A stretch of 64,000 nucleotides of DNA from an uncultured Thermoleophilaceae bacterium (lineage in GTDB: Bacteria > Actinomycetota > Thermoleophilia > Solirubrobacterales > Thermoleophilaceae), in assembly GCA_963751105.1 (NCBI GenBank), contig CAVVTG010000001.1, positions 582,344 to 646,343 of the forward strand, given 5' to 3'. The notes beneath the pieces were generated by a model, which saw only the letters and a list, made by a program, of their open reading frames with translations, had not been told where the DNA came from and searched no databases. A program made the position numbers and the translations under genes. Shown here in pieces: positions 1,716 to 47,538 of the stretch (positions within the stretch are counted from its first letter, which is position 1; every line of letters begins with the position of its first letter).

Positions 1716-2600
1716 GTGGCCGCACAGCGGGTCGAGGTGGGAGTCGAGGGCCGCCGGCTCTCGCTCTCGAACCTGGCCAAGGTCCTCTACCCCGCCGTGG
1801 GCTTCACCAAGGGCGAGGTGATCGACTACTACACGCGCGTGTCCGCCGCGGTCCTACCTCACCTCCGCGACCGGCCGCTCACGCTCAAGCGCTATCCGAA
1901 CGGCGTCGAGGGGCAGTATTTCTACGAGAAGAACTGTCCCTCCCACGCGCCCGAGTGGGTGCGCAAGGAGGAGGTCGGCGGGATCGCGTACTGCGTCTGC
2001 GACGACCTGCCGACTCTCGTCTGGCTGGCCAACCTCGCCGATCTCGAGCTGCACCCCTCGCTGTCGCTGGTCGAAGACATCGACCGCCCCACGGTGATGG
2101 CCTTCGACCTCGACCCCGGTCCGCCGGCCGGGGTGGCGGAGTGCTGCGAGGTGGCGGTGCTGCTGCGCGACGCGCTTGCCCAGATCGGCCTCGACTCATA
2201 CGCCAAGACGTCCGGCTCGAAGGGCCTTCAGGTCTACGTGCCGCTCAACAGCGAGGTGGACTACGACCACGGCACCAAGCGCCTCTCACAGGCGCTGGCG
2301 CGGCACCTGGAGGCGCAGCACCCGAAGCTGATCGTCTCGAGCCAGCGCAAGGAGCTGCGCACGGGCAAGGTGCTGATCGACTGGAGCCAGAACGACGAGC
2401 ACAAGACCACCGTGGCGGTCTACTCGCTACGCGCGCGTGAGCGGCCGACCGTCTCCACGCCGCTGCTCTGGGAGGAGGTCGAGCGGGGTGACGCCGAGGC
2501 GCTCGTGTTCGAGGCCGCCGACGTGCTCGAGCGCGTGGCCGAGCACGGCGACCTGTTCGCGCCGGTGGTCGAGCAGCAACAGCGCCTGCCCGACCTGTGA
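1716..2600 (+). CDS. ligD: LigD polymerase/primase domain protein (stand-alone)
   Basis: Motifs VGFTKGEVIDYYTRVSAAVLPHLRDRPLTLKRYPNG, FDLDP and SGSKGLQVYVPL match the AEP primase-polymerase motifs of LigD-Pol. The GTG start directly abuts the ku stop codon. Confidence 0.9.
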   Translation: MAAQRVEVGVEGRRLSLSNLAKVLYPAVGFTKGEVIDYYTRVSAAVLPHLRDRPLTLKRYPNGVEGQYFYEKNCPSHAPEWVRKEEVGGIAYCVCDDLPTLVWLANLADLELHPSLSLVEDIDRPTVMAFDLDPGPPAGVAECCEVAVLLRDALAQIGLDSYAKTSGSKGLQVYVPLNSEVDYDHGTKRLSQALARHLEAQHPKLIVSSQRKELRTGKVLIDWSQNDEHKTTVAVYSLRARERPTVSTPLLWEEVERGDAEALVFEAADVLERVAEHGDLFAPVVEQQQRLPDL

Positions 2601-2613
2601 GCCGGACGGCTGC

Positions 2614-3927
2614 TCAGCCGGCCTTGTAGGCCACCACCGCTGCCGCCCAGGTGCCCGAGGCCGACAGCGTCGGTGCGTAGCTGTACGCGCCGGTGGTGGT
2701 CACGAGCCGCCGGCCGCCCACGTTGGTGAGCTGCACGGTCGCGCAGGCCAGGCTCTGGGCGGTGAGCGCGGTGAAGCCCGAGGGCTGCGTGGCGGTCAGC
2801 TGGCCCGTGCTGCTCACCGCGCCGATCAGGAGGCTCGGGTTGCTGATCGTCGTGACCGGCGCCGAGGGGTTGGCGCTCGTGCCGGTACCGGCGCCGCTGG
2901 CGTCGGCCGCGCCCGAGGCCACGTTGGCGAACTCGTCGGCCACCAGGCCCGAGCTGGTGGAGCTGGGGAAGTTCACGGTGATGGTGTTGCCGGAGGTGAG
3001 CGCGGTCGTGACCCGTGCGTGCAGGATCACCGCGCGCTGGTTGCCGTTGAGCACGTCGCGATCGACGCTGTAGGTGTTGCCTCTCGAATCGGAGGCGGTG
3101 ACCGCCGGCGCCGTGGTGCCCCGCAGCGCCAGGCGGAGTATCACGGTGTTCTGGGCCGCTACGCCGGCCGCGGGGACGGTCACCGTGGCCGAGGTCGTCC
3201 CGCAGCTCGACTGTCCGATGTTCTTGACGAAGGCCGGGCCCACGGTCACGGCCCGCGAGGCCACGTCGCCCGCGCTGCCGATCGCGAAGATTGTGTGGCT
3301 GCCCGACGTGGTGCCCGCCGGGAGGGTCACGCTCACCGTGGCGGTGCCGCTGGCGGGGACCGGGCTGGGTGTGATGCTGCCGCTGAGAACGGTGCCGGTG
3401 GTGGCGTTGTCGAGGCGGTAGGTCACCGTCTGCCCGGGCACGAAGTTGCTGATCGTCCCGGTGACGGTGGCGGGTCCGGCCGGCACGTACGCGGTGGACA
3501 GGGTGAGCGCCGCCGCGGGCACGGTGACCGCGGTGCTGTGAGCGCTCTCCGTCCCGCGCCACAGCCCCTGCCGGGGAGTGACGCTGTAACGCCAGCTTCC
3601 CGCGGGAACGGCCGCCTCGGTGCAGGTGAGTGCGGTGATGGTGGTGTTGCAGGCGCTCCCGATGCTCTGCAGCACGCCGGCGGTCGTGTAGCGCCGGACC
3701 TCGTAGCCGCCCACGGCCGGCCCGCCGGAGAAGCTGCTCTGGGCCCAGCTGACGGTGACGCTGCGGTTGGAGCGCGAGGTGGTGGGCGTGTTGCCGCCGG
3801 GCATGGTGCGGGCCTTGGCGTAGGCGCTGCCGCTGCCCGGAGAGCTCCACGCGCCCAGCGCGGCGGGCGGGCAGATCAGAGCCGCGACCAGCGCCGCGGC
3901 GAGAACGAGCTTCGTGCCCCGCTTCAC
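2614..3927 (-). CDS. Secreted multi-domain protein (signal peptide, Fn3-like and Ig-like repeats), uncharacterised; protein C of a 3-gene operon
   Basis: N-terminus VKRGTKLVLAAALVAALICPPAALGAW is followed by the GSGSAYAKART motif. Fn3-like VTVSWAQSS..GGYEVRRY is present, with Thr/Ser/Ala/Val-rich beta-type repeats. The GTG start overlaps the upstream stop in GTGA (3924-3927). The longer track ORF to 4101 overlaps the upstream gene and is rejected. Confidence 0.7.
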   Translation of the reverse strand: MKRGTKLVLAAALVAALICPPAALGAWSSPGSGSAYAKARTMPGGNTPTTSRSNRSVTVSWAQSSFSGGPAVGGYEVRRYTTAGVLQSIGSACNTTITALTCTEAAVPAGSWRYSVTPRQGLWRGTESAHSTAVTVPAAALTLSTAYVPAGPATVTGTISNFVPGQTVTYRLDNATTGTVLSGSITPSPVPASGTATVSVTLPAGTTSGSHTIFAIGSAGDVASRAVTVGPAFVKNIGQSSCGTTSATVTVPAAGVAAQNTVILRLALRGTTAPAVTASDSRGNTYSVDRDVLNGNQRAVILHARVTTALTSGNTITVNFPSSTSSGLVADEFANVASGAADASGAGTGTSANPSAPVTTISNPSLLIGAVSSTGQLTATQPSGFTALTAQSLACATVQLTNVGGRRLVTTTGAYSYAPTLSASGTWAAAVVAYKAG

Positions 3928-4373
3928 CGCGGCCGCCTGGGGCCCGCGCGGGCCCGTGCCTTCAGGGTGTAGCGGCCTCCCTGGCAGGCGCTCTCCGCGG
4001 TGGGGAGCATCCACACGGTCAGGCTCAGGCGGCGCACGCCCCGCGCGGGGAGCGGCACGTAGCCGCGAAACACGTCGAACTTCAACGACTCGGCGGAGCA
4101 CCCGCGCGGAGCGCGAGCGACCCAGACCCGGGCGCGCCGGATCGTCAGCGGCCGGCGCCGGCGATTGGCCACCCGCACGGTCACCGGGAGGCGGGCGCCG
4201 GGATACAGCAGGCCCTCCACCCGAGCCGAGAGCCGGAGGCCGTGATGGCTCCGGTGCTTGGCCGTCGCCGCCGGCGCGGCCTCATCGCTCTGGCTGTTCA
4301 CCAGTGCATCGGCCGTGGCCGCGGCCGCGAACAGCGCGGCCACCAGGGCGAGGAGGAGGAGAGGTCGCTTCAT
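3924..4373 (-). CDS. Small secreted protein, paralogous core to the upstream gene; protein B, uncharacterised
   Basis: Signal peptide MKRPLLLLALVAALFAAAATADA. It shares LYPG...V(T/R)V.N...GC...CQG..(F/Y)T with the 4440-4928 product. It is translationally coupled to the downstream gene. Confidence 0.6.
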   Translation of the reverse strand: MKRPLLLLALVAALFAAAATADALVNSQSDEAAPAATAKHRSHHGLRLSARVEGLLYPGARLPVTVRVANRRRRPLTIRRARVWVARAPRGCSAESLKFDVFRGYVPLPARGVRRLSLTVWMLPTAESACQGGRYTLKARARAGPRRPR

Positions 4374-4439
4374 GCAAGGGCGGGACGAACGGCGGGAGGC
4401 CGGGGCCTCCCGCCGTGCCGAACGGACTCCGCGGTCTCC

Positions 4440-4928
4440 TTATGGGGCGTTGCTCGCGCCGGTGAGGTTGACCGGGATCGTGAACGTGGCGCCCTGGCAC
4501 CCGTCGGACGAGGCGTTGGACATGCTCGCCGCGCCAGTCAGGGTCGCTGTGGTGGCTCCGCTCGCGGGCACGTCGATGGTCAGCCCGGTCTGGTTGGCGA
4601 AGGTCACCCCGGTGGTCGTGCACCCAGCGGCGTGTGCCGCGTCGGGAGTGATCGAGCCGGTGCCGTTCGACACGCCCGTGACTCGCACCGGATAGGGGTT
4701 GGGGTTGTTGACCCGCAAGGTCACATTCCCGCTGGCGCCCGGGTAGAGCGAGGCGGTGGTGGAGGCGGAGACGTCCGCCGTGGTCAGCGCCGACGCGGTG
4801 CCGGCCTTGGCGTAACCGGAGCCCGTGCCGTTGGCGAGCCAGGCGGCGGAGACGAGACCGGCGGCGGCGAGCGCCACGACGGCAACAGCAACGGCGACAA
4901 GCTTCCTGCGGGTAAGGATGCGCTTCAT
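4440..4928 (-). CDS. Small secreted protein; protein A, uncharacterised, candidate major subunit
   Basis: The ATG at 4928 gives MKRILTRRKLVAVAVAVVALAAAGLVSAAW followed by LANGTGSGYAKAGT. The body is Thr/Ser/Gly/Asn-rich, beta-type, and contains two Cys (GCTTTG, GCQGATFTI). The track ORF extends to 5081, but that extension is Pro/Gly-rich leader-like sequence. Confidence 0.65.
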   Translation of the reverse strand: MKRILTRRKLVAVAVAVVALAAAGLVSAAWLANGTGSGYAKAGTASALTTADVSASTTASLYPGASGNVTLRVNNPNPYPVRVTGVSNGTGSITPDAAHAAGCTTTGVTFANQTGLTIDVPASGATTATLTGAASMSNASSDGCQGATFTIPVNLTGASNAP

Positions 4929-5055
4929 TGGAGGTCCGTTCGTCGAGGTCCCTAGACGAATGGTGTATCGACGTGTGAAGGGACGCCTTGATACCCCAAC
5001 TGGGGATCCGCCTCCGAGGTGTGGGGTAGGCCCAGGTGGGTACGGTTGACTTCGA

Positions 5056-6102
5056 ATGGTCGACTGGTCGATTGCCCGCACGCTCGCTCGCTTGACCGCT
5101 GGCGGTGACGACGCGGCCGTCCCCGGGCTCGATGTGCGGGCGCTGTGCGAGGAGATGGAGCCGCACGTGGCCGGCTACACCGGACTGCTCCCGGCCGATC
5201 CGCGCCCGCTGGCCGAGGCGGTCAGTCGTGCTGAGTGGGCCTCGATCAATATCGATTCGGTGGCCACGGTGCTCGATCCGGTGGCCGCGCGCCTGGACGA
5301 ACGGTTCGCTTCCGCCGGTCCGTTTGCGGGCGTTCTGAGGACGGGAGCCTCGGCTGCCCTCGCCGCGGAGACCGGCCTGGTGTTCGGCTACGTCTCCACG
5401 CGCGTACTCGGCCAGTACGACATCTCGCTGCTCGGCGGTGACGCGCCCCCCCGGCTGCTGTTCGTGGCGCCCAACCTGGACAAGGCGGTCCGAGAGCTCG
5501 ACGTCAACGCGCTCGCCTTCGGGCGCTGGGTGGCGGCCCACGAGCTCACCCACGTCTTCCAGTTCCAGGGCGTCCCGTGGCTGCGCGGGCACATGAGCGG
5601 CCTCCTGCGCGCCTATCTCGCGACGGTCGAGGTCCGCATCGATCAGGGCACCGCCGGTGGGCTCGCCTCGCTGCCCGACCCGCGCAAGCTGATCGAGGCC
5701 TTCCGCGAAGGAGGGCTGGCCTCACTCGTCCAGAACGACGACCAGCGCGCCCAGATGGGCCGGATCCAGGCGGCGATGGCGGTTATCGAGGGCTACTCCG
5801 AGCACGTCATGGACGCGATCGCCGAACGCGCCATTCCCGACTACGAGAACCTGCGGGCGGCGATGACCGCCCGGCGCAGCAGCCGTTCGGCGCCCGAGCT
5901 CCTGATCGAGCGCCTGCTGGGCTTCGACGTGAAGCTCCGTCAGTACGAGCTGGGCAAGGGCTTCAGCGATGCGGTGGTGAGCGAGGCGGGCATCGACGGC
6001 CTCAACCGCGTGTGGGCCTCCCCCGAGGCGCTCCCGACGATGGACGAGCTGACCGAGCCGGCGGCCTGGCTGGCGCGAGTGTCGGGCGACCGGGCGGCCT
6101 AG
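5056..6102 (+). CDS. Zinc-dependent metalloprotease family protein (HExxH; resembles the actinobacterial DUF2342-type hydrolase)
   Basis: It carries HELTHVFQF (HExxH) followed by EGYSEHVMD. The length and overall pattern fit the conserved actinobacterial putative Zn hydrolase family. Confidence 0.7.
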   Translation: MVDWSIARTLARLTAGGDDAAVPGLDVRALCEEMEPHVAGYTGLLPADPRPLAEAVSRAEWASINIDSVATVLDPVAARLDERFASAGPFAGVLRTGASAALAAETGLVFGYVSTRVLGQYDISLLGGDAPPRLLFVAPNLDKAVRELDVNALAFGRWVAAHELTHVFQFQGVPWLRGHMSGLLRAYLATVEVRIDQGTAGGLASLPDPRKLIEAFREGGLASLVQNDDQRAQMGRIQAAMAVIEGYSEHVMDAIAERAIPDYENLRAAMTARRSSRSAPELLIERLLGFDVKLRQYELGKGFSDAVVSEAGIDGLNRVWASPEALPTMDELTEPAAWLARVSGDRAA

Positions 6103-6199
6103 CCTCCGCCGCTTGCGCCGCTGCGCTCCGCTCGGGCGTTGCGCGGCGCTTCGGTGCGGCCACGATTGGCTGGAAAGGGGTGAGCCCGGGGCGCCTCGT

Positions 6200-6252
6200 G
6201 GGGGGTCTGACGCGTTCTTCGTCTATAGGGCGAACAAGTCGTCAGACCCCCC
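6200..6252. other. Perfect 13-bp GC-rich inverted repeat (GGGGGGTCTGACG-N27-CGTCAGACCCCCC) in a 356-nt non-coding gap
   Basis: Read directly from the sequence. The arms are 6200-6212 and 6240-6252, and no T-tract follows. It could be a terminator of the 5056-6102 gene, an RNA element or a protein-binding site. Confidence 0.4.
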
Positions 6253-6362
6253 GCGGAGCGCCGCGCCGGCCGGACCAACCCCTTCCCCAGCCAGACGGAC
6301 CACGCCGAACCCCCCACGCCCGCCCGAGCGGAACGCACTCTGTAACGAACCCGCGCCGCCGG

Positions 6363-6390
6363 TTTACAAACGTGTGTTCGTTGGTATAGT
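6363..6390 (+). promoter_or_regulatory. Sigma-70-type promoter candidate TTTACA-N16-TATAGT
   Basis: This is a low-GC island with a -35-like TTTACA (6363-6368) and a -10 TATAGT (6385-6390). It sits about 70 nt upstream of a strong AAGGAG RBS and the ATG at 6459. Confidence 0.45.
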
Positions 6391-6458
6391 TGTACCGAAC
6401 TTAGAACTAATAAGCTTACGCCCAGACGGACGGGCAGGGACGAAACAAGGAGATCACT

Positions 6459-7092
6459 ATGGCCGCTCAGACCGAAACACAGCGCAAGGCGACCGCTCGC
6501 AAGGCCGCCGCGACCCGTCGTCGCAACGCCTCCAAGCGCAGCGCCACCGCCGCCAAGAGCTCGGCGAAGCGCACTCAGAACGCCGCCCGCAGCACGCAGT
6601 CCGCTGCCAAGGCCACCCGGACCGCCACGGCCAACGCCGCCGAGGCGCGCGTCAAGGCCGAGCTGAACACGCTGCAGGTCGTCCAGGCTCAGGCCGAGCG
6701 TGCGGTGCTCATTCCCGTCGGCGCCGCGCTGATCGCGCGTGACGCGGTCGTCGGACGTCGCCAAGCCCTACGTGGCCGGTCGCGACAGCGCCGAGAAGGA
6801 GATCGAGAAGGTCGGCAAGCGGGTGTCGGTCAACCTGCGCAAGGCCGAGCGCCGCGGCACCACGGCCCGCAACCGTGCGGTGCGCGAGACCAAGAAGACG
6901 CGCACCCGTGTGGAGCGTCAGCTGCGCCAGCGCCGCAACGGCGTGGTGCGGACGGTCAAGCAGAACCGCCGCGATGCCGAAAAGCAGGTAAAGACGGCTC
7001 GCCGTGAGTTCGAGCGCCAGGTCACTGTCACGCGCCGCGAGGTGCAGGCTCAGGCCGAGGGCATCGTCGACCGCGTGAGCACGATCGCCTAG
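6459..7092 (+). pseudogene. Highly basic Ala/Lys/Arg-rich protein (HbhA/histone-H1-like composition with a central hydrophobic segment); reading frame broken near 6753
   Basis: AAGGAG RBS and ATG at 6459. Frame 0 codes well up to ...AVLIPVGAALIARDAVV (6752). High-GC3 coding then continues only in the +1 frame (DVAKPYVAGRDSAEKEIEK... to the TAG at 7092). Removing one G of the GG at 6753-6754 joins the two parts. Confidence 0.6.
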
Positions 7093-7142
7093 CGCGTACA
7101 GGCTTCCCCCGCCCGCTTTGGAGAGAGCGGAGACGGGAAAGA

Positions 7143-7167
7143 CTGCCGGCCTCATATTCGCCGGCAG
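7143..7167 (+). terminator. Hairpin CTGCCGGC-N9-GCCGGCAG downstream of the basic-protein gene
   Basis: It has an 8-bp perfect stem 51 nt after the TAG at 7092. There is no clear U-tract, which is common in high-GC actinobacteria. Confidence 0.4.
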
Positions 7168-7237
7168 TGCAGTATCTCTCCTCCCTCAGCCAGCGGCGCC
7201 TACGGGCGCCGTTGGCCATTCCGGGCTGCGACAATGG

Positions 7238-8386
7238 ATGGCGATGCCTACTCGTGAACAGATTGAGGACGTCCTGCGCGGGGTCATCGACCCTGAGCTG
7301 CGCAAGGACATCGTGTCCCTCGGCATGGTCCGTTCCATCGAGCAGCCCGAGGAGGGCCGCGTGGACGTGGTCGTGTCGCTGACCACCCCCGGCTGCCCGA
7401 TCCGCTCGCACTTCGAGACGGCCGTGCGCGAGAAGGTCTCCAGCCTCGGCGTCAGCCAGGTCGGCGTGGCCTTCGACGTGCTCTCCGACCAGGAGAAGTC
7501 GACGCTCTCCCAGCGGCTCGGCCGCGGTCAGAGCGGCTTGCCCGAGGGCGCGCTCGCCGCGGTCAAGAACGTCATCTGCGTCGGTTCCGGCAAGGGCGGG
7601 GTGGGTAAATCCACCATCACCACCAACCTCGCCGCCGCTCTGCAGGCCGACGGCCACCAGGCCGCCGCGCTCGACGCCGACGTGTGGGGTTACTCGATTC
7701 CTCGCATGCTCGGGGTGCACGGCCGGCCCAAGGTCTCGGCCGAGCGCAAGATCCTCCCGCTCGAGGGGCCGGGTGGCGTGAAGGCGATCTCGATCGAGCA
7801 CTTCCTCAACGAGCGCGACCAGGCCATCACCTGGCGCGGCCCGATGCTCCACAAGGCGATTCGCCAGTTCCTCGAGGACGTGGACTGGGGAGAGCTCGAC
7901 TACCTGCTGATCGACCTGCCTCCCGGCACAGGCGACGTGTCGATGACCCTCGCCCAGCTGCTTCCCCAGGCTCGTTTCGTCGTGGTCACCACGCCGCAGC
8001 CCGCCGCGCAGAAGGTCGCGGCTCGCGCGGCCGAGACGGCCCGGCGTTTCGACCTCGAGGTGCTCGGCGTGATCGAGAACATGTCGGGCTTCACCACCCC
8101 GGACGGCGAGCGCTTCACCATCTTCGGCGAGGGCGGGGGCCAGGTCCTAGCCGACGAGCTCGACGTGCCCCTGCTCGGGAAGATCCCCCTTCAGGAGGAG
8201 CTGCGGGTGTCAGCCGACGAGGGCCGCCCGCTCGTGCTCGACGATCCCTCGGCACCCGCCGCCCAGGCGATCTACCACGCCACGCGAGGCATCATCGCGG
8301 CCACCCCGCAGGAGCTGGCGGTCCTGCAGGCGCCGTCCGGCCCGCCCGTTCCGGAGATCACCGGGACGGCGCTGCCGATGGCGTAG
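7238..8386 (+). CDS. Mrp/ApbC/NBP35-family Fe-S cluster carrier ATPase
   Basis: It has an N-terminal DUF59-like REQIEDVLRGVIDPELRKDIVSLGMV and the deviant Walker A GSGKGGVGKSTITTNLA. Start could be the ATG at 7238 or 7244. Confidence 0.92.
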   Translation: MAMPTREQIEDVLRGVIDPELRKDIVSLGMVRSIEQPEEGRVDVVVSLTTPGCPIRSHFETAVREKVSSLGVSQVGVAFDVLSDQEKSTLSQRLGRGQSGLPEGALAAVKNVICVGSGKGGVGKSTITTNLAAALQADGHQAAALDADVWGYSIPRMLGVHGRPKVSAERKILPLEGPGGVKAISIEHFLNERDQAITWRGPMLHKAIRQFLEDVDWGELDYLLIDLPPGTGDVSMTLAQLLPQARFVVVTTPQPAAQKVAARAAETARRFDLEVLGVIENMSGFTTPDGERFTIFGEGGGQVLADELDVPLLGKIPLQEELRVSADEGRPLVLDDPSAPAAQAIYHATRGIIAATPQELAVLQAPSGPPVPEITGTALPMA

Positions 8387-43010: not shown

Positions 43011-46000
43011 TCAGGCGCTGAGCGTGAGCTTGCGCGGGCTCTGGCGAAAGCCCAGCTCGATCAGGAGCGCCCCGACCTCGGTGCCCACCACGGGCTCGCC
43101 GTCGAAGCGCTCGAGCCCGAGACGCGGCACCCGGCCGCGCTTGACGGCGTCGGCCAAAGCCTCGAGGGCGGGCCGCAGCCAGTCCTCCTCCGGCTCCCGC
43201 AGCGCGAGCAGCGCCTTGCCGCCGCGCTCCACGTACAGCACCGGCTCGGCGTCGAGCGACACCACGAAGGCACCGGGCACGCGCGAGGGCCGCCGGGCCT
43301 CGTCGTCGCGCTTGGGCCATGGGAGCGTGGCGCCATAGGGATTGGCCGGGTCGGTCACCGCCAGCACGAGCGGGCCGCCGGCCTCGTCGCTGCGCATCGA
43401 GCGCAGCCGCTCGATCGCCGCGGAGAGCGCGAACTGCGCCCCGCCGAGCCCCTCGACGAAGTAGCCGCGGCGAGCCGTGCCCAGGGTCTCGAGGTTGGCC
43501 AGCTCACCGTAGAGGCCCGAGAAGCCACCGGGGATCCCCTCGGCCAGCACGGTCTCGCGCGTGACTATGCCGTAGCGCTCCAGCAGCACCTCGGCGAGGG
43601 CGCGCATGCGGGGCCCGTGAGCGGGCGCACCGGCGAACAACGGCCCGGTGAGCGACCAGCGCCCCTGCACCTGGGGAGCCCCGGGGCGGCGGCGGCGGGC
43701 AAAGCGCCGGCCGGCGTCGCGTTCGCGCCGAGCCACGCTCAGGCGAGGTGAGCGCAGCGGAGCAAAGGCGTCGTTGGTCACCTCGCCGGCCCAGACGAGA
43801 TCCCACAACGCCTCCTGCAGCTCCACCGGCTCGGCCTCGCCGAGGTCGGCCAGCAGGTCGCTCCAGAAGCCGGCGCCCCGCTCGAGCCGCTCCCGCAGCG
43901 CGTCGTGAAGCGGCTCAGCCGGCGCCTCTCCCTTGACAGGCGGCGGACCGAGCCAGCGCGCGTCCTCTCGGAAGTAGAGCGCCACCCGTCCGGTGCGCCG
44001 GCCGGTGGCCCCGGCGCCCACCCAGACGAGCTCCCCGCTCGCGCACAGCTGGTCCATCCAGGACGGCGAGTAGGCGCCCACGCGCCGCGGCAGGACGTCG
44101 CGCTCCCAGACTTCGGGAGCGAGGGCCAGGCCCTGAAGGGGCACGAGCTGCTCACGCATGCGGTCCACGCCGGCGCCACCGGGCGGCGCGCCGTCCACGC
44201 CCTGCCAGGCGGGCAGGAAGCGGGCGAGCGCACGCTGCTCGGCCGGCTCGACCTCCTTGCGCAGGCTGGCCAGCGAAGCGCGGCGCAGGCGCCGCAGCAC
44301 GTCCGGATCGCACCACTCGCGCTCGCTGCCGCCGGGCCGAAGCTCGCCGCGGATGAGCGAGCCCGCCCGCTCGAGCTCGCGCAGGACGGGCCCGAAGTCG
44401 AGGGCGTACCGGTCAGAGACGTCGCGGGTGGTGAAGGGACCATGGGTACGGGCGTAGCGGCGGGCGAGCCGGGCCAGGGGCTCGTCGACGTCCTCCAGGA
44501 ACACGGCCGGCAACCCGCCGGGGGGCACGGCGCCCAGCGCGTCGCGATACAGGCCCGCGTCCTCACTCGCTATCCAGCGCTCCTCACCGCCGATACGCAT
44601 CTTCACCGCACGGCGCGTCCTCTCGAGGTCGGTGAGGATCCGCCGGGCGGCCACGGCCTCGAGGCAGCGCTCCTGCGCCTCGGCGACGGTCAGGTCCCCC
44701 ACCGCACGCAGCACGTCGTGCAGGCTGTCGGCGTTGGCCGCCTTCGTGCGCTCGCTCAGGCGCTGGAGATCGGCCTCCACCTCCGCCAGCGCGTCCGGGT
44801 CGATCAGCTCACGCAGCTCCTCCTGGCCGAGTAGCTCACGCAGGAGGTCACGATCGAGCGAGAGCGCGGCCGCCCGCCGCTCGGCGTTCGGCGTGTCGCC
44901 CTCGTACATGTAGGTGGCCACGTAGTCGAACAGCAGCGACGACGCGAAGGGGGAGGCCCGCTGCGTCTCGACCTCGACCAGCGACAGCTCGCGGGTGTGC
45001 AGGCCGCGCAACAGCTCCTCGAGCCCGGGCAAGTCGAGCACGTCGCGCAGGCATTCGCGGTAGGTCTCGAGCACGATCGGGAACTGCCCGTAGCGCTTGG
45101 CCACCTCGAGCAGCGACTGCGCCTTCAGGCGCTGCTGCCACAGCGGCGTGCGCTTACCGGGGTAGGCGCGGGGGAGGAGCAGGGCGCGAGCCGCGTTCTC
45201 GCGGAAGCGGGCGCCGAACAGGGCGGAGCTCGACAGCTCCTTGACCACCATCTCCTCGACCAGATCGGGCTCGACCATCACCAGCTCGGCGCCCGGCGGC
45301 TCGTCGGAGTCGGGCAGGTGGACGATGATGCCGTCGTCGGACCATATGGCGTCGGACTCGAGGCCGAACTCGTCGCGGATACGCGCGCTCAGGGCCAGCG
45401 CCCAGGCTGAATGCACCCGCCCACCGAAGGGCGACAGCACGCACAGGCGCCAGTCGCCGATCTCGTCGCGGAAGCGCTCGATCACGATCGTGCGGTCGCT
45501 CGGCACCACCCGCGTCGCGTCGCGCTGCTCCCGCAGGAAGGAGGAGAGGTTCTTCGCCGCCCGCTCGTCGAGGTCGTAGCCCGCGGCCAGCTCGGCTGGA
45601 TCCTGGTCCACGGCCGTGCGGGAGAAGGCGCCGATCGCGGCGCCCAGCTCCTTGGGCCGGCCGATGCCCTCGCCGCGCCAGAAGGGCACAGCGCCGGGAG
45701 CGCCCGGGGCGGGGGTGACGATCACCCGGTCGCGGGTGATCTCCTCGATGCGCCAGGTGGAGGCGCCGAGCAGGAAGGTCTGTCCCGGGCGAGCCTCGTA
45801 GACCATCTCCTCGTCGAGCTCGCCCACCCGGCGGCCGTCGGGCAGGTTCACTCCGTACAGGCCGCGGTCGGGAATGGTTCCCGCGTTGGTCACGGCCAGC
45901 TGGCGGGCGCCCTTGCGAGCGCGGATCGTGTCCTCCACCCGGTCCCAGACGATGCGCGGGCGCAGCTCGGCGAACTCCTCGGACGGATAGCGGCCGTCGA

Positions 46001-47474
46001 GCATGTCGAGCACGCTGTCGAGCAGCTCCCTCGACAGCTCGGCGAACGGGTATGCGCGGCGGATGGTGTCGTGGAGGGCCGGGACCTTGAGCTCGTCGCC
46101 GGGCGCGGTCATGGCCACGATCTGCTGGGCGAGCACGTCGAGCGGGTTGCGGGGGATCACCGTCGACTCGATGTCGCCGTCGCGCATGCGCTTGGCCACC
46201 ACCGCGCACTCGAGCAGGTCGGCCCTGAACTTGGGGAAGATGCGGCCCCGCGACACGTCGCCGACGTTGTGACCGGCCCGGCCGATCCGCTGCAGCCCCG
46301 CGGTCACAGACTTGGGCGACTCCACCTGGATGACCAGGTCCACCGCTCCCATGTCGATGCCGAGCTCGAGCGAGGAGGTGGCCACCAGGCAGGGCAGCTG
46401 CCCGGACTTGAGCAGGTCCTCGACCACCAGGCGCTCCTCGCGGGCCAGGGAGCCGTGGTGCGCGCGTGCGACATAGAGCGCTTCGCCACCCCCGAGCCGT
46501 TCTTCCCACTCGGGGTCCTCCCCCGCCAGCTCGTTCAAACGCACCGCCAGCCGCTCGGCGCCGCGCCGGGCGTTGACGAAGATGATCGTCGAGCGGTGCT
46601 GCTTCACGAGCTCGAGCAGCTCGGGGTAGATCGCCGGCCAGATCGAGCGCTGCGTGGTGGGCGGGGTGTCGCCCACTCCGAAGCCGTCGCTCGTGCCCAC
46701 CAGGTCGCCGCCTCCGGCCGCGGTGCCCATGCCGCCCACGGCGGGGTCCGTGACGTCATGGGCGTCCGGCTCGGACATGTTCTCCACCGGCACGTGGATC
46801 TTCAGGTCTAGTGGCTTGCGCACGCCGGTGTCGACCACCGTGCAGTCCCGCCCCGCCCCGGCCAGGAAGCGGCCCACCTCTTCGAGCGGTTTCTGAGTGG
46901 CCGACAGGCCGATCCGCTGCAGCGGGCGCCCGGCCAGTTCCTCGAGCCGCTCGAGCGTCAGCGCCAGGTGGGCGCCGCGCTTGGTTCGGGCCACCGCGTG
47001 GATCTCGTCGACGATCACCCACTCGGTGTCCACCAGGAACTCGCGGGCACGCGACGTGAGCATCAGGTAGAGCGACTCCGGCGTCGTGATGAGCACGTCC
47101 GGCGGGGTGCGCAGCATCGCCTGACGCTCCTTCTGCGGCGTGTCTCCCGTGCGGATGGCCACGCTGATGTCGCCACCGATGCCCTTCAGCGGGGCGCGCA
47201 GGTTCTTCTCGACGTCGTAGGAGAGCGCCTTCAGGGGAGAGACGTACACGAGGCGGGTGCGGCGCGGCTCGGCGGGTTCGGCCACCAGGCGATCGAGTCC
47301 CCAGAGGAAGGCGGCCAGGGTCTTGCCCGAGCCCGTGGGGGCGGAGACGAGAACGTTCTCGCCCCCCGCAATGGCGGGCCAGGCCTGCTCCTGGGCCTCC
47401 GTCGGGCGCTCGAAGGAACGCGTGAACCAATCACGGACCTGCGGGGTGAACGATGCGAGCGGGTCTGGCGTCAC
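43011..47474 (-). CDS. lhr: ATP-dependent helicase Lhr (large helicase-related protein, 1487 aa)
   Basis: It has SF2 motifs APTGSGKTL, VIVDEIHAV and HHGSL, plus the long Lhr-specific C-terminal region. nei lies downstream, as in mycobacterial lhr-nei operons. Confidence 0.93.
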   Translation of the reverse strand: MTPDPLASFTPQVRDWFTRSFERPTEAQEQAWPAIAGGENVLVSAPTGSGKTLAAFLWGLDRLVAEPAEPRRTRLVYVSPLKALSYDVEKNLRAPLKGIGGDISVAIRTGDTPQKERQAMLRTPPDVLITTPESLYLMLTSRAREFLVDTEWVIVDEIHAVARTKRGAHLALTLERLEELAGRPLQRIGLSATQKPLEEVGRFLAGAGRDCTVVDTGVRKPLDLKIHVPVENMSEPDAHDVTDPAVGGMGTAAGGGDLVGTSDGFGVGDTPPTTQRSIWPAIYPELLELVKQHRSTIIFVNARRGAERLAVRLNELAGEDPEWEERLGGGEALYVARAHHGSLAREERLVVEDLLKSGQLPCLVATSSLELGIDMGAVDLVIQVESPKSVTAGLQRIGRAGHNVGDVSRGRIFPKFRADLLECAVVAKRMRDGDIESTVIPRNPLDVLAQQIVAMTAPGDELKVPALHDTIRRAYPFAELSRELLDSVLDMLDGRYPSEEFAELRPRIVWDRVEDTIRARKGARQLAVTNAGTIPDRGLYGVNLPDGRRVGELDEEMVYEARPGQTFLLGASTWRIEEITRDRVIVTPAPGAPGAVPFWRGEGIGRPKELGAAIGAFSRTAVDQDPAELAAGYDLDERAAKNLSSFLREQRDATRVVPSDRTIVIERFRDEIGDWRLCVLSPFGGRVHSAWALALSARIRDEFGLESDAIWSDDGIIVHLPDSDEPPGAELVMVEPDLVEEMVVKELSSSALFGARFRENAARALLLPRAYPGKRTPLWQQRLKAQSLLEVAKRYGQFPIVLETYRECLRDVLDLPGLEELLRGLHTRELSLVEVETQRASPFASSLLFDYVATYMYEGDTPNAERRAAALSLDRDLLRELLGQEELRELIDPDALAEVEADLQRLSERTKAANADSLHDVLRAVGDLTVAEAQERCLEAVAARRILTDLERTRRAVKMRIGGEERWIASEDAGLYRDALGAVPPGGLPAVFLEDVDEPLARLARRYARTHGPFTTRDVSDRYALDFGPVLRELERAGSLIRGELRPGGSEREWCDPDVLRRLRRASLASLRKEVEPAEQRALARFLPAWQGVDGAPPGGAGVDRMREQLVPLQGLALAPEVWERDVLPRRVGAYSPSWMDQLCASGELVWVGAGATGRRTGRVALYFREDARWLGPPPVKGEAPAEPLHDALRERLERGAGFWSDLLADLGEAEPVELQEALWDLVWAGEVTNDAFAPLRSPRLSVARRERDAGRRFARRRRPGAPQVQGRWSLTGPLFAGAPAHGPRMRALAEVLLERYGIVTRETVLAEGIPGGFSGLYGELANLETLGTARRGYFVEGLGGAQFALSAAIERLRSMRSDEAGGPLVLAVTDPANPYGATLPWPKRDDEARRPSRVPGAFVVSLDAEPVLYVERGGKALLALREPEEDWLRPALEALADAVKRGRVPRLGLERFDGEPVVGTEVGALLIELGFRQSPRKLTLSA

Positions 47475-47538
47475 AGGACCCCTGAGCGTACCGTCTCAGG
47501 GTGGCCGGGCTCAGCGCGTCCGGCTACGCTGAAGCCAC

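Follow-up and report, generated by a model that had tools for sequence, protein, structure and literature searches.

The locus considered here lies in a window of 64,000 nucleotides (nt) from an uncultured Thermoleophilaceae bacterium (contig CAVVTG010000001.1, positions 582,344 to 646,343; all coordinates below are positions in this window) and holds three co-directional genes, designated A, B and C, whose exported products may together form a surface fibre. An earlier reading of the DNA, made from the letters alone and referred to here as the sequence-only reading, had placed these genes on the minus strand, and the open reading frames (ORFs) and their translations agree with its coordinates (Table 1), including the overlap of the B stop with the C start in GTGA at 3924-3927. 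The GC content at third codon positions (GC3) of the A, B and C ORFs is 0.89-0.95, matching the coding expectation for a genome of 70% GC. All three proteins begin with basic residues followed by a hydrophobic stretch, as that reading had reported, and its inability to name a family is borne out by profile searches, in which none of A, B and C reached a Pfam or NCBIfam threshold.

Table 1. Features of the A-B-C locus, with window positions and residue numbers of the encoded proteins (arrow, predicted cleavage site; SPase I, type I signal peptidase; AF2, AlphaFold2).
Feature	Position (nt)	Residues	Strand	Remarks
Gene A	4440-4928		minus	162 aa, ATG start; proposed major subunit
A signal peptide	4845-4928	1-28	minus	predicted SPase I site VSA↓AW; family-wide pattern
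A N-terminal extension	4770-4844	29-53	minus	AW-x3-G-x-G-x-G-Y-A-K-A, then ALTT-x-DVSA; proposed donor strand
A motif shared with C	4797-4844	29-44	minus	AWLANGTGSGYAKAGT
A beta-sandwich core	4449-4769	54-160	minus	LYPG, NPNPYPV-x-VT, invariant C103 and C144, CQGATFTIPV
GC-rich hairpin	4389-4416		minus	12-bp stem, 4-nt loop; 23 nt after A stop, 15 nt before B start
Gene B	3924-4373		minus	149 aa, ATG start; proposed acceptor-only terminator and anchor
Gene C	2614-3927		minus	437 aa, GTG start; proposed donor-only initiator and tip adhesin
C signal		1-25	minus	
C A-type motif	3805-3852	26-41	minus	AWSSPGSGSAYAKART
C Fn3 domain	3520-3804	42-136	minus	AF2, Foldseek
C Ig-like domain	3238-3519	137-230	minus	AF2
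C jelly-roll distal domain	2617-3237	231-437	minus	AF2
Intergenic region, A to divergent Zincin_2 gene	4929-5055			127 nt; presumed cassette promoter, by position only

Similarity between A and C is restricted to their N-termini. The 16-residue motif that had been described directly behind the hydrophobic segment of both proteins lies exactly where it had been placed, with 10/16 residues identical between A and C, a value reached anywhere in the protein by 3/20,000 shuffles of C, and comparison by hhalign (94.6%, E 6.5e-8) extends the similarity over 44 N-terminal columns only, ending after AKA, such that the shared part comprises the signal peptide and A↓AW-x3-G-x-G-x2-Y-A-K-A. The motif is present in 88/91 A-type ORFs as against 2/60 B-type ORFs, and in most loci the C homologue retains A-x-(A/G/S)-W-x3-G-x-G-x2-(Y/S/F)-(A/S)-(K/R)-A. 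Among 101 diverse A members, A28, W30, G34, G36 and A42 are each at least 90% conserved, the segment of cleavage site and motif accounting for 5 of A's 16 most conserved positions, and mature position 2 is aromatic (W) across 243 motif-bearing members of the family. Residues 33-51 of A are unstructured in the AF2 monomer model (predicted local distance difference test, pLDDT, <50); a segment that is conserved yet stands outside the monomer fold is what would be expected of one acting on another molecule. The motif also occurs, as AEW/AQW-LA-x-GTG-x-GYA(K/R)A, in A-family representatives of 290-520 aa (P0144, P0151, P0153, P0161, P0201 and P0279); in this sub-group the A-type core is followed by 130-360 extra C-terminal residues, and one such representative has been named 'Putative metal-binding motif' by JGI.

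The segment that precedes the motif has the features of a Sec-type signal. Over the 243 motif-bearing members, the n-region is basic, at a mean net charge of +3.2, and is followed by a hydrophobic h-region (mean Kyte-Doolittle value 1.6), and the family site reads (L/V/I)-(V/A)-(Y/F)-A↓A-W, with Ala at -1 in 227/243. From its residues, (V/A)-(Y/F)-A↓A-W would be a textbook -3/-1 SPase I site, with A-W as the predicted mature N-terminus, and the almost invariant A-x-A↓A-W argues for cleavage over membrane anchoring. A itself ends in LTGASNAP and lacks a C-terminal anchor. Export by the twin-arginine translocation (Tat) route was considered and rejected, as of 243 n-regions 95 contain RR and 15 a Tat-like motif; because twin arginines are not conserved, export is most likely Sec-dependent.

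Behind the N-terminal extension, A folds in the AF2 model (40 homologues, mean pLDDT 76.7) into a core block at pLDDT 82-93, preceded by a helix over residues 7-33 that corresponds to the signal helix. The protein is strongly conserved (63-91% identity in alignment A1), and both C103 and C144 are kept in 101 diverse A-type and 30 B-type sequences, with M136 at least 90% conserved in A and in B. By their sequences, A and B are paralogues: pairwise phmmer gives E ~1e-5, and the A-type and B-type profiles align by hhalign at 99.2% (E 1.3e-19) over LYPG, the N-x-N strand, both invariant Cys, the conserved Met and CQGA-x-F. The two-cysteine core that the sequence-only reading had described for A and B thus stands in its paralogy and its invariant Cys, but the V(T/R)V-x-N spacing given for it is just approximate for A, which reads LRVNN. 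B has its own signal or anchor segment, a variable spacer and an Arg-rich core, without the N-terminal motif, and its charge is inverted, the median isoelectric point (pI) of the last 110 residues being 4.3 in A-type and 12.0 in B-type proteins across dozens of lineages. It also diverges fast, with 21-62% identity in alignment A4 and just 10 word-based matches.

C is a modular protein of a different kind. Its AF2 model reaches pLDDT 90.6, with residues 1-40 disordered, and Foldseek matches it to tandem FnIII arrays and to a bacterial adhesin extender region (E ~1e-6), in accordance with the Fn3 and immunoglobulin (Ig)-like modules that had been recognised in it from the letters. The distal ~200 residues of the C protein of the window were found only in the 5 closest loci, and C homologues carry CBM96, Laminin_G_3, DUF7483 or Big_13 in place of the distal jelly-roll; such swapping of the distal domain between lineages is as expected for a tip adhesin.

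The family to which A belongs is large and unnamed. Among 90%-identity clusters, 1,755 relatives were retrieved at E≤1e-3, all annotated 'hypothetical' and none with a Pfam domain, and a profile search of 1.8 billion representatives returned 2,823 50%-identity clusters at E≤1e-3 and 1,280 at E≤1e-10. None of 101 diverse A relatives reaches any Pfam or NCBIfam threshold, and the A profile has no match below E 0.3 among PDB sequences. A scan of one genome per species with alignment A1 as query placed A relatives in Thermoleophilia, Acidimicrobiia and Actinomycetes, in a total of at least 219 species genomes, the best 80 of them comprising Thermoleophilaceae, Solirubrobacterales, Gaiellaceae, Conexibacter, Microthrixaceae, Iamiaceae, Rugosimonospora and unclassified Actinomycetes metagenome-assembled genomes (MAGs); the nearest two relatives are Thermoleophilaceae MAGs at 96% identity.

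Gene order was surveyed by local profile searches on all ORFs of 85 loci, some counts covering 80 or 82 loci. A B-type gene follows A in most loci, and immediately downstream, in 80/85, comes a homologue of the first 235 residues of C. Automatic classification gave the orders A-B-C (49 loci), A-C (16), A-C'-B (6, C' being a form of 133-137 aa with motif and Fn3 only), A-A-C (5) and a few others; on inspection, the B genes of L028, L080 and L084 had been classed as A-type by this procedure. In three Solirubrobacterales MAGs (L012, L013 and L027) the basic B-type gene is missing and two acidic A-type genes, each bearing the motif, stand in tandem; L027 appears to hold two tandem A-C units. When all ORFs within 9 kb of A were clustered over 82 loci, no conserved neighbour emerged beyond B and C, and the sporadic neighbours were housekeeping MOSC, GGT, histidine kinase, LigD and FMN_red genes. 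A-B-C, or A-C, is thus the sole neighbourhood conserved across 80 loci from several classes, which argues that the cassette is self-contained and must rely on general export machinery.

The arrangement of the genes bears on how much of each protein may be made. The A-B intergenic region folds as RNA at -40 kcal/mol, and a hairpin of unrelated sequence occurs at the same position after 97% of 87 A genes vs 36% of random 120-nt controls (criterion, a best 50-nt window of -25 kcal/mol or lower), with a median best minimum free energy of -35.8 kcal/mol after A genes vs -22.9 kcal/mol in the controls. A pattern scan of 2400-5300 found no U-tract terminator, and the hairpin is proposed to act as an attenuator or as a 3' mRNA stabiliser that would raise A far above B and C. 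At 37/47 junctions B and C overlap by 4 nt (NTGA), so that they are, to judge from this overlap, translationally coupled. Hairpin and coupling together suggest abundant A and scarce B and C, with B roughly equal to C, and thus fit a major subunit accompanied by minor subunits.

Donor-strand fibres described elsewhere provide the frame within which these features may be read. In Bacillus subtilis TasA, residues 28-38 of the mature protein insert into the next subunit, and TapA, which resembles TasA only in its N-terminal donor strand, nucleates the fibre by donating that strand (PMC9674648; PMC10151520). For the Tafi of Haloarcula it has been proposed that TafC, which shares only its N-terminus with the major subunit and bears a laminin-G domain, occupies the tip, and that growth ends when the last strand is taken up by TafF, which also serves as the anchor; in AlphaFold monomers the N-terminus of TafA comes out disordered (PMC11821415). 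In subunits of the AbpX type, mature position 2 is aromatic and the pI lies at ~4, and the genes for TasA, AbpA, AbpX and the Tafi pilin are described as often adjoining a SipW-type peptidase gene (bioRxiv 10.64898/2026.01.04.697558).

It is most likely, on the present data, that this widespread, unnamed cassette of soil Actinomycetota builds a TasA-like surface fibre out of a major subunit, a tip protein and a basic capping paralogue. In its specific form, a Sec-exported, chaperone-free donor-strand surface fibre that would work like TasA/TapA and like archaeal Tafi or bundling pili, the proposal is assigned a probability of about 0.5. Cleavage, strand insertion, polarity, anchoring and stoichiometry are here inferred from the anatomy of the three proteins. 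A general SPase I would cut A and C after (V/A)-x-A and so expose a mature A-W-x3-G-x-G-x-G-Y-A-K-A, upon which the flexible N-terminus of A would enter the sandwich of the following A as a beta-strand, giving rise to a non-covalent A polymer. As C has the strand without an A-type sandwich, it could donate but not accept, and would thus start the fibre and end up at its distal tip, with an Fn3-Ig stalk and a lineage-specific lectin-like domain. Conversely, B has the sandwich without the strand and could accept but not donate, and would take the last free strand and end growth at the cell-proximal end, where its positive charge (pI ~12) may tether the acidic fibre to the membrane or to anionic polymers of the wall. 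The hairpin after A, together with the coupling of B and C, would set the ratio, with A in large number and B and C at roughly one copy each per fibre. Counted in favour of the fibre are the restriction of A-C similarity to the N-terminal segment, which is the pattern of TapA/TasA and TafC/TafA (PMC9674648; PMC10151520; PMC11821415), the conserved but disordered N-terminus of A, as reported for the TafA donor strand (PMC11821415), and the recurrence of an acceptor-only paralogue, fused to Ig repeats, in a remote variant of the cassette (L085).

The likeness to each of the known systems is partial. With TasA/TapA the cassette would share Gram-positive, Sec-dependent and chaperone-free export, an aromatic residue behind the Ala that follows the A-x-A site, a major subunit and an accessory protein with only the N-terminal strand in common, and the expectation that the most conserved residues lie at the interface. 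However, TasA is a jelly-roll of ~200 residues, whereas the A core is a 105-residue sandwich with a Cys pair and has no significant sequence or fold match to it, and the order A-B-C, without a SipW gene and with an extra acceptor-only paralogue of pI 12, differs from tapA-sipW-tasA. Tafi, with its TafC tip, TafE adapter, TafA major subunit and TafF terminator and anchor, is similar in the logic proposed, with a lectin-tipped protein that shares only ~40 N-terminal residues with the major subunit, paralogous beta-sandwich minor subunits, an acceptor-only terminator, an acidic major subunit and a disordered N-terminus (PMC11821415), but is archaeal and Tat-dependent with a dedicated SPase I (TafD), whereas the cassette has Sec-type signals, no linked peptidase, an Fn3 and Ig tip stalk and a strongly basic putative terminator. 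AbpX and AbpA are alike in a donor strand that is amphipathic and N-terminal, the aromatic position 2, a subunit pI of ~4 and loci that include minor subunits, tip proteins and anchors (bioRxiv 10.64898/2026.01.04.697558; PMC9245690). They differ in that position 4 of the cassette motif is T, A or S rather than an acidic Ca-binding residue, in that no homology is detectable, and in that the cassette lacks a ten-transmembrane SPase I, a DUF5305 partner and an SLH or LPXTG anchor. Chaperone-usher pili (FimA/FimH, PapA/PapH) are likewise polar polymers formed by N-terminal strand donation, in which PapH terminates and anchors, and their operons place the major-subunit gene before the minor-subunit genes, as in the cassette; the roles are reversed, however, since the FimH adhesin only accepts a strand and the adhesin-like C would be the donor-only partner, and the source organism is a monoderm without a periplasmic chaperone or outer-membrane usher. 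The cassette consists of no more than its three genes and its hosts are Actinomycetota; a PapD_C match (E 0.008) in at most 2/101 members is spurious.

Whether A is itself a relative of TasA is a separate matter. A, B and C have no match at E≤1 to PF12389 (Peptidase_M73) or TIGR04088, and 101 diverse A members set against TasA-superfamily models gave 0 matches at E≤0.01 and 3 at E≤1. The remote variant L085 (5691-12598), on an 887-kb JGI metagenome contig, has two A-type genes with TasA-like N-termini (AYFTSTGSGTG...), a B-type protein of 533 aa in which a motif-less sandwich is fused to Big_3_5 Ig repeats, with no Arg/Lys-rich stretch in the parts inspected, and a C-type protein of 1,365 aa with AFYSYTDSS... 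and Fn3. N-termini of its distant members read AFA↓YFTSTGSGTGNGQVGSATNF and AYA↓YFTSTGSGTGHGRAGTL and resemble the SipW-cognate consensus, and their top matches are to Peptidase_M73 (E 0.0096 and 0.032; 16.2 and 14.5 bits, cut-off 22.5) and TIGR04088 (E 0.011; 15.9 bits, cut-off 19), all sub-threshold. Such N-termini (AYFTSTGSGTG..AGTL), together with the sub-threshold matches, indicate that the motif grades towards the TasA type, and the statement of the sequence-only reading that it is not of the SipW type therefore needs softening. The TasA cleavage site is TWA↓AF (PMC9674648) vs (V/A)-(Y/F)-A↓A-W in the A family, and when the A2 profile is aligned to B. subtilis TasA the signal, WAAF over AAW, and LKPGD..FENNG over LYPG..NPNPY fall into register. 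The N-terminal module of A, judged from these residues, may be a distant relative of the TasA type or a product of convergence, and the 105-residue Cys-pair core is not recognisably TasA-like. Homology of the A family to TasA is not demonstrated, and the likeness is one of working in a similar manner, not of membership. Of 80 loci searched, only that of an Iamiaceae MAG (L039) has a SipW- or SipS-like gene near the cassette; this SipW-like gene lies within 10 kb, beside a canonical TasA-like gene of a separate actinobacterial cluster (4408-8123) 2-7 kb downstream of an A-C cassette. This cluster encodes a 253-aa Peptidase_M73-like protein with AAFLDTTDNTGNSFSAGTVEL (E 2e-4), a SipW-like S26 peptidase of 223 aa, and a 783-aa protein whose N-terminal part is SipW-like, with AAFTDTTANPGSTFGAGTL as an internal motif and Fn3 at the C-terminus.

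A number of results weigh against the donor-strand proposal. The sandwich of A already has 7-8 strands in the AF2 model, so that no missing strand is evident, and the strand exchange is purely inferred. Foldseek, queried with the closed monomer including signal helix and disordered tail, placed no TasA, AbpA, thread, pilin or Tafi structure among the top 50 PDB matches, the best being a Cu chaperone (E 0.09) and others generic sandwiches. The alignment of the A2 profile to TasA reaches only 6.5% (P 0.0056; TasA sequence verified as identical to PDB 8AUR), and that of A to the actinobacterial TasA-like protein of L039 only 0.2%, both against single-sequence templates. No SipW-type (S26B) or type I signal peptidase was detected in the window by motif scans and by phmmer with SipS and SipW sequences, a reasonable but not exhaustive search that agrees with what the sequence-only reading had noted. 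Mature position 4 of A is not acidic as it is in AbpX, a pI of 12 is out of the ordinary for a domain of a Sec substrate, and B is absent from about 12-16/82 loci and hence cannot be essential. The TasA/TapA-type logic that the sequence-only reading had brought forward fits the sharing of the motif and the roles proposed for C and B, but finds no fold match to TasA or a pilin, and the fibre itself is putative.

Alternatively, A, B and C could be secreted or N-terminally anchored beta-sandwich proteins of a non-filamentous envelope complex, for example acidic A bound to basic B with C as a glycan-binding partner, and the motif a membrane-proximal docking or processing signal, which we regard as somewhat unlikely. 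The sandwich of A looks complete, the AF2 helix extends to residue 33, the opposite charges of A and B would suit a heterodimer, and no pilus-like fold was matched. In addition, no Pfam family other than LEA_2 (PF03168) recurs among the weak matches of the A core (30/101 members at E≤1, best E 0.0012, all below the gathering threshold). LEA_2/WHy domains are small beta-sandwiches that in prokaryotes often follow an N-terminal hydrophobic segment, bacterial and archaeal examples often carrying a transmembrane segment or a lipoprotein signal there, and are not known to form fibres; the Cys pair, NPNPYP, CQGATFTIPV and the N-terminal strand of A are not LEA_2 features. However, a near-invariant A-x-A↓A-W site favours cleavage over anchoring, the excess of A over B and C implied by hairpin and coupling is a misfit with a fixed complex, as is a B that is dispensable in some lineages, and a small subunit that has a post-cleavage strand alone in common with a large modular protein is what typifies TapA/TasA and TafC/TafA.

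Extracytoplasmic copper handling, with A as a PCuAC/ECuC-like chaperone that uses the Cys pair and Met136 as ligands, appears very unlikely. It would account for the top Foldseek matches of A, the Cu(I) metallochaperone 3zja (probability 0.93) and PCuAC domains, for the conservation of the three residues, and for the JGI name of the one long relative, but the matches are non-significant generic beta-sandwiches (TM-scores of 0.3-0.45), the H(M)x10Mx21HxM motif of PCuAC is absent from A, no copper genes are linked in 80 loci, and C, the shared N-terminal motif and the pI-12 paralogue would be left unexplained; for invariant paired Cys in an exported protein of actinobacteria, a disulfide is the simpler explanation. 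A filament like type IV or archaeal pili, held together by a retained N-terminal hydrophobic helix after prepilin peptidase cleavage, would agree with the long modelled helix ahead of the sandwich and with a weak Foldseek match to the Pyrobaculum type IV pilus subunit 8fk7 (probability 0.28). It is nevertheless slightly less credible still, since a class III signal is lacking, with neither a conserved Glu5 nor a G/A↓hydrophobic site before the helix, the conserved A-x-A site comes after the helix instead, and no PilB/TadA ATPase, platform protein or prepilin peptidase was found in the window or the conserved neighbourhood. The least probable of these readings, which we hold to be scarcely tenable, is a covalent sortase-type pilus in which W-x9-Y-A-K serves as a pilin motif (WxxxVxVYPK) and Lys41 as the cross-linking nucleophile. 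The resemblance of W...YAK to the pilin motif is superficial, and although close A homologues conserve Lys41 to at least 90%, many A and C homologues have R, Q, E, T or G instead. In the window, motif scans and phmmer with SrtA found no sortase, no LPXTG with a hydrophobic tail and no TLxTC, a reasonable but not exhaustive search that upholds the absence of LPXTG and sortase noted earlier; nor was there an SrtA match by phmmer, an LPXTG or a C-terminal anchor across 80 loci.

On one side, the gene for a LigD primase-polymerase (1716-2600) converges on the cassette, and on the other a Zincin_2 gene (5056-6102) diverges from it, so that the cassette looks like a separate transcription unit; a pattern scan found no sigma-70-like promoter consensus in 2400-5300. 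The Zincin_2 gene is retained beside A only in the 5 closest genomes, and LigD PrimPol adjoins the cassette in a minority of loci (one ORF cluster of 10 loci). In the window the latter, separated from C by a gap of 13 nt, belongs to a set of non-homologous end-joining genes encoding separate proteins on the plus strand (35-2600), namely an ATP-dependent ligase, of which the window edge leaves only the C-terminal part, Ku (837-1715) and the stand-alone PrimPol. Long ORFs lie antisense to C on the plus strand (2681-3421; 130 and 115 codons between stops, GC3 0.93-0.98) and are regarded as artefacts because of the Thr/Ser/Ala/Gly-rich codon usage of C; ORFs opposite the cassette genes form large cross-locus clusters as well and could mislead gene callers. 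Elsewhere in the window, a Lys/Arg/Glu-rich ORF of 117 aa (6739-7092, plus strand; GC3 0.91) has good coding statistics and no Pfam match, and overlaps a longer alternative ORF in another frame (6459-7007), and a coding-potential scan marked a minus-strand ORF of 1,494 codons between stops (43011-47495; GC3 0.92).

To return to the donor-strand fibre, it is possible, though this is put forward tentatively, that the cassette represents an independent donor-strand lineage specific to Actinomycetota and not homologous to TasA, abundant in uncultured soil Thermoleophilia and Acidimicrobiia, which does without a dedicated peptidase, chaperone, usher or sortase and is ended by a charge-inverted B that would fasten the acidic fibre electrostatically to the anionic cell wall or to extracellular DNA. 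If so, a minimal rule for a polar fibre of three parts would follow, consisting of a donor-only, a donor-and-acceptor and an acceptor-only protein. Thermoleophilia (Solirubrobacterales, Thermoleophilaceae and Gaiellaceae) and Acidimicrobiia are common, little-cultured soil Actinomycetota; no publication was found on surface structures of either class, nor one describing such a cassette in these taxa. The families of A, of B and of the C N-terminus merit database family models. Should the fibre be real, a 105-residue subunit with a swappable lectin tip would constitute a compact, engineerable scaffold, donor-strand fibres could run on the general Sec and SPase I machinery alone, and matrix filaments of the TasA, Tafi and AbpX type would extend to a major soil phylum.

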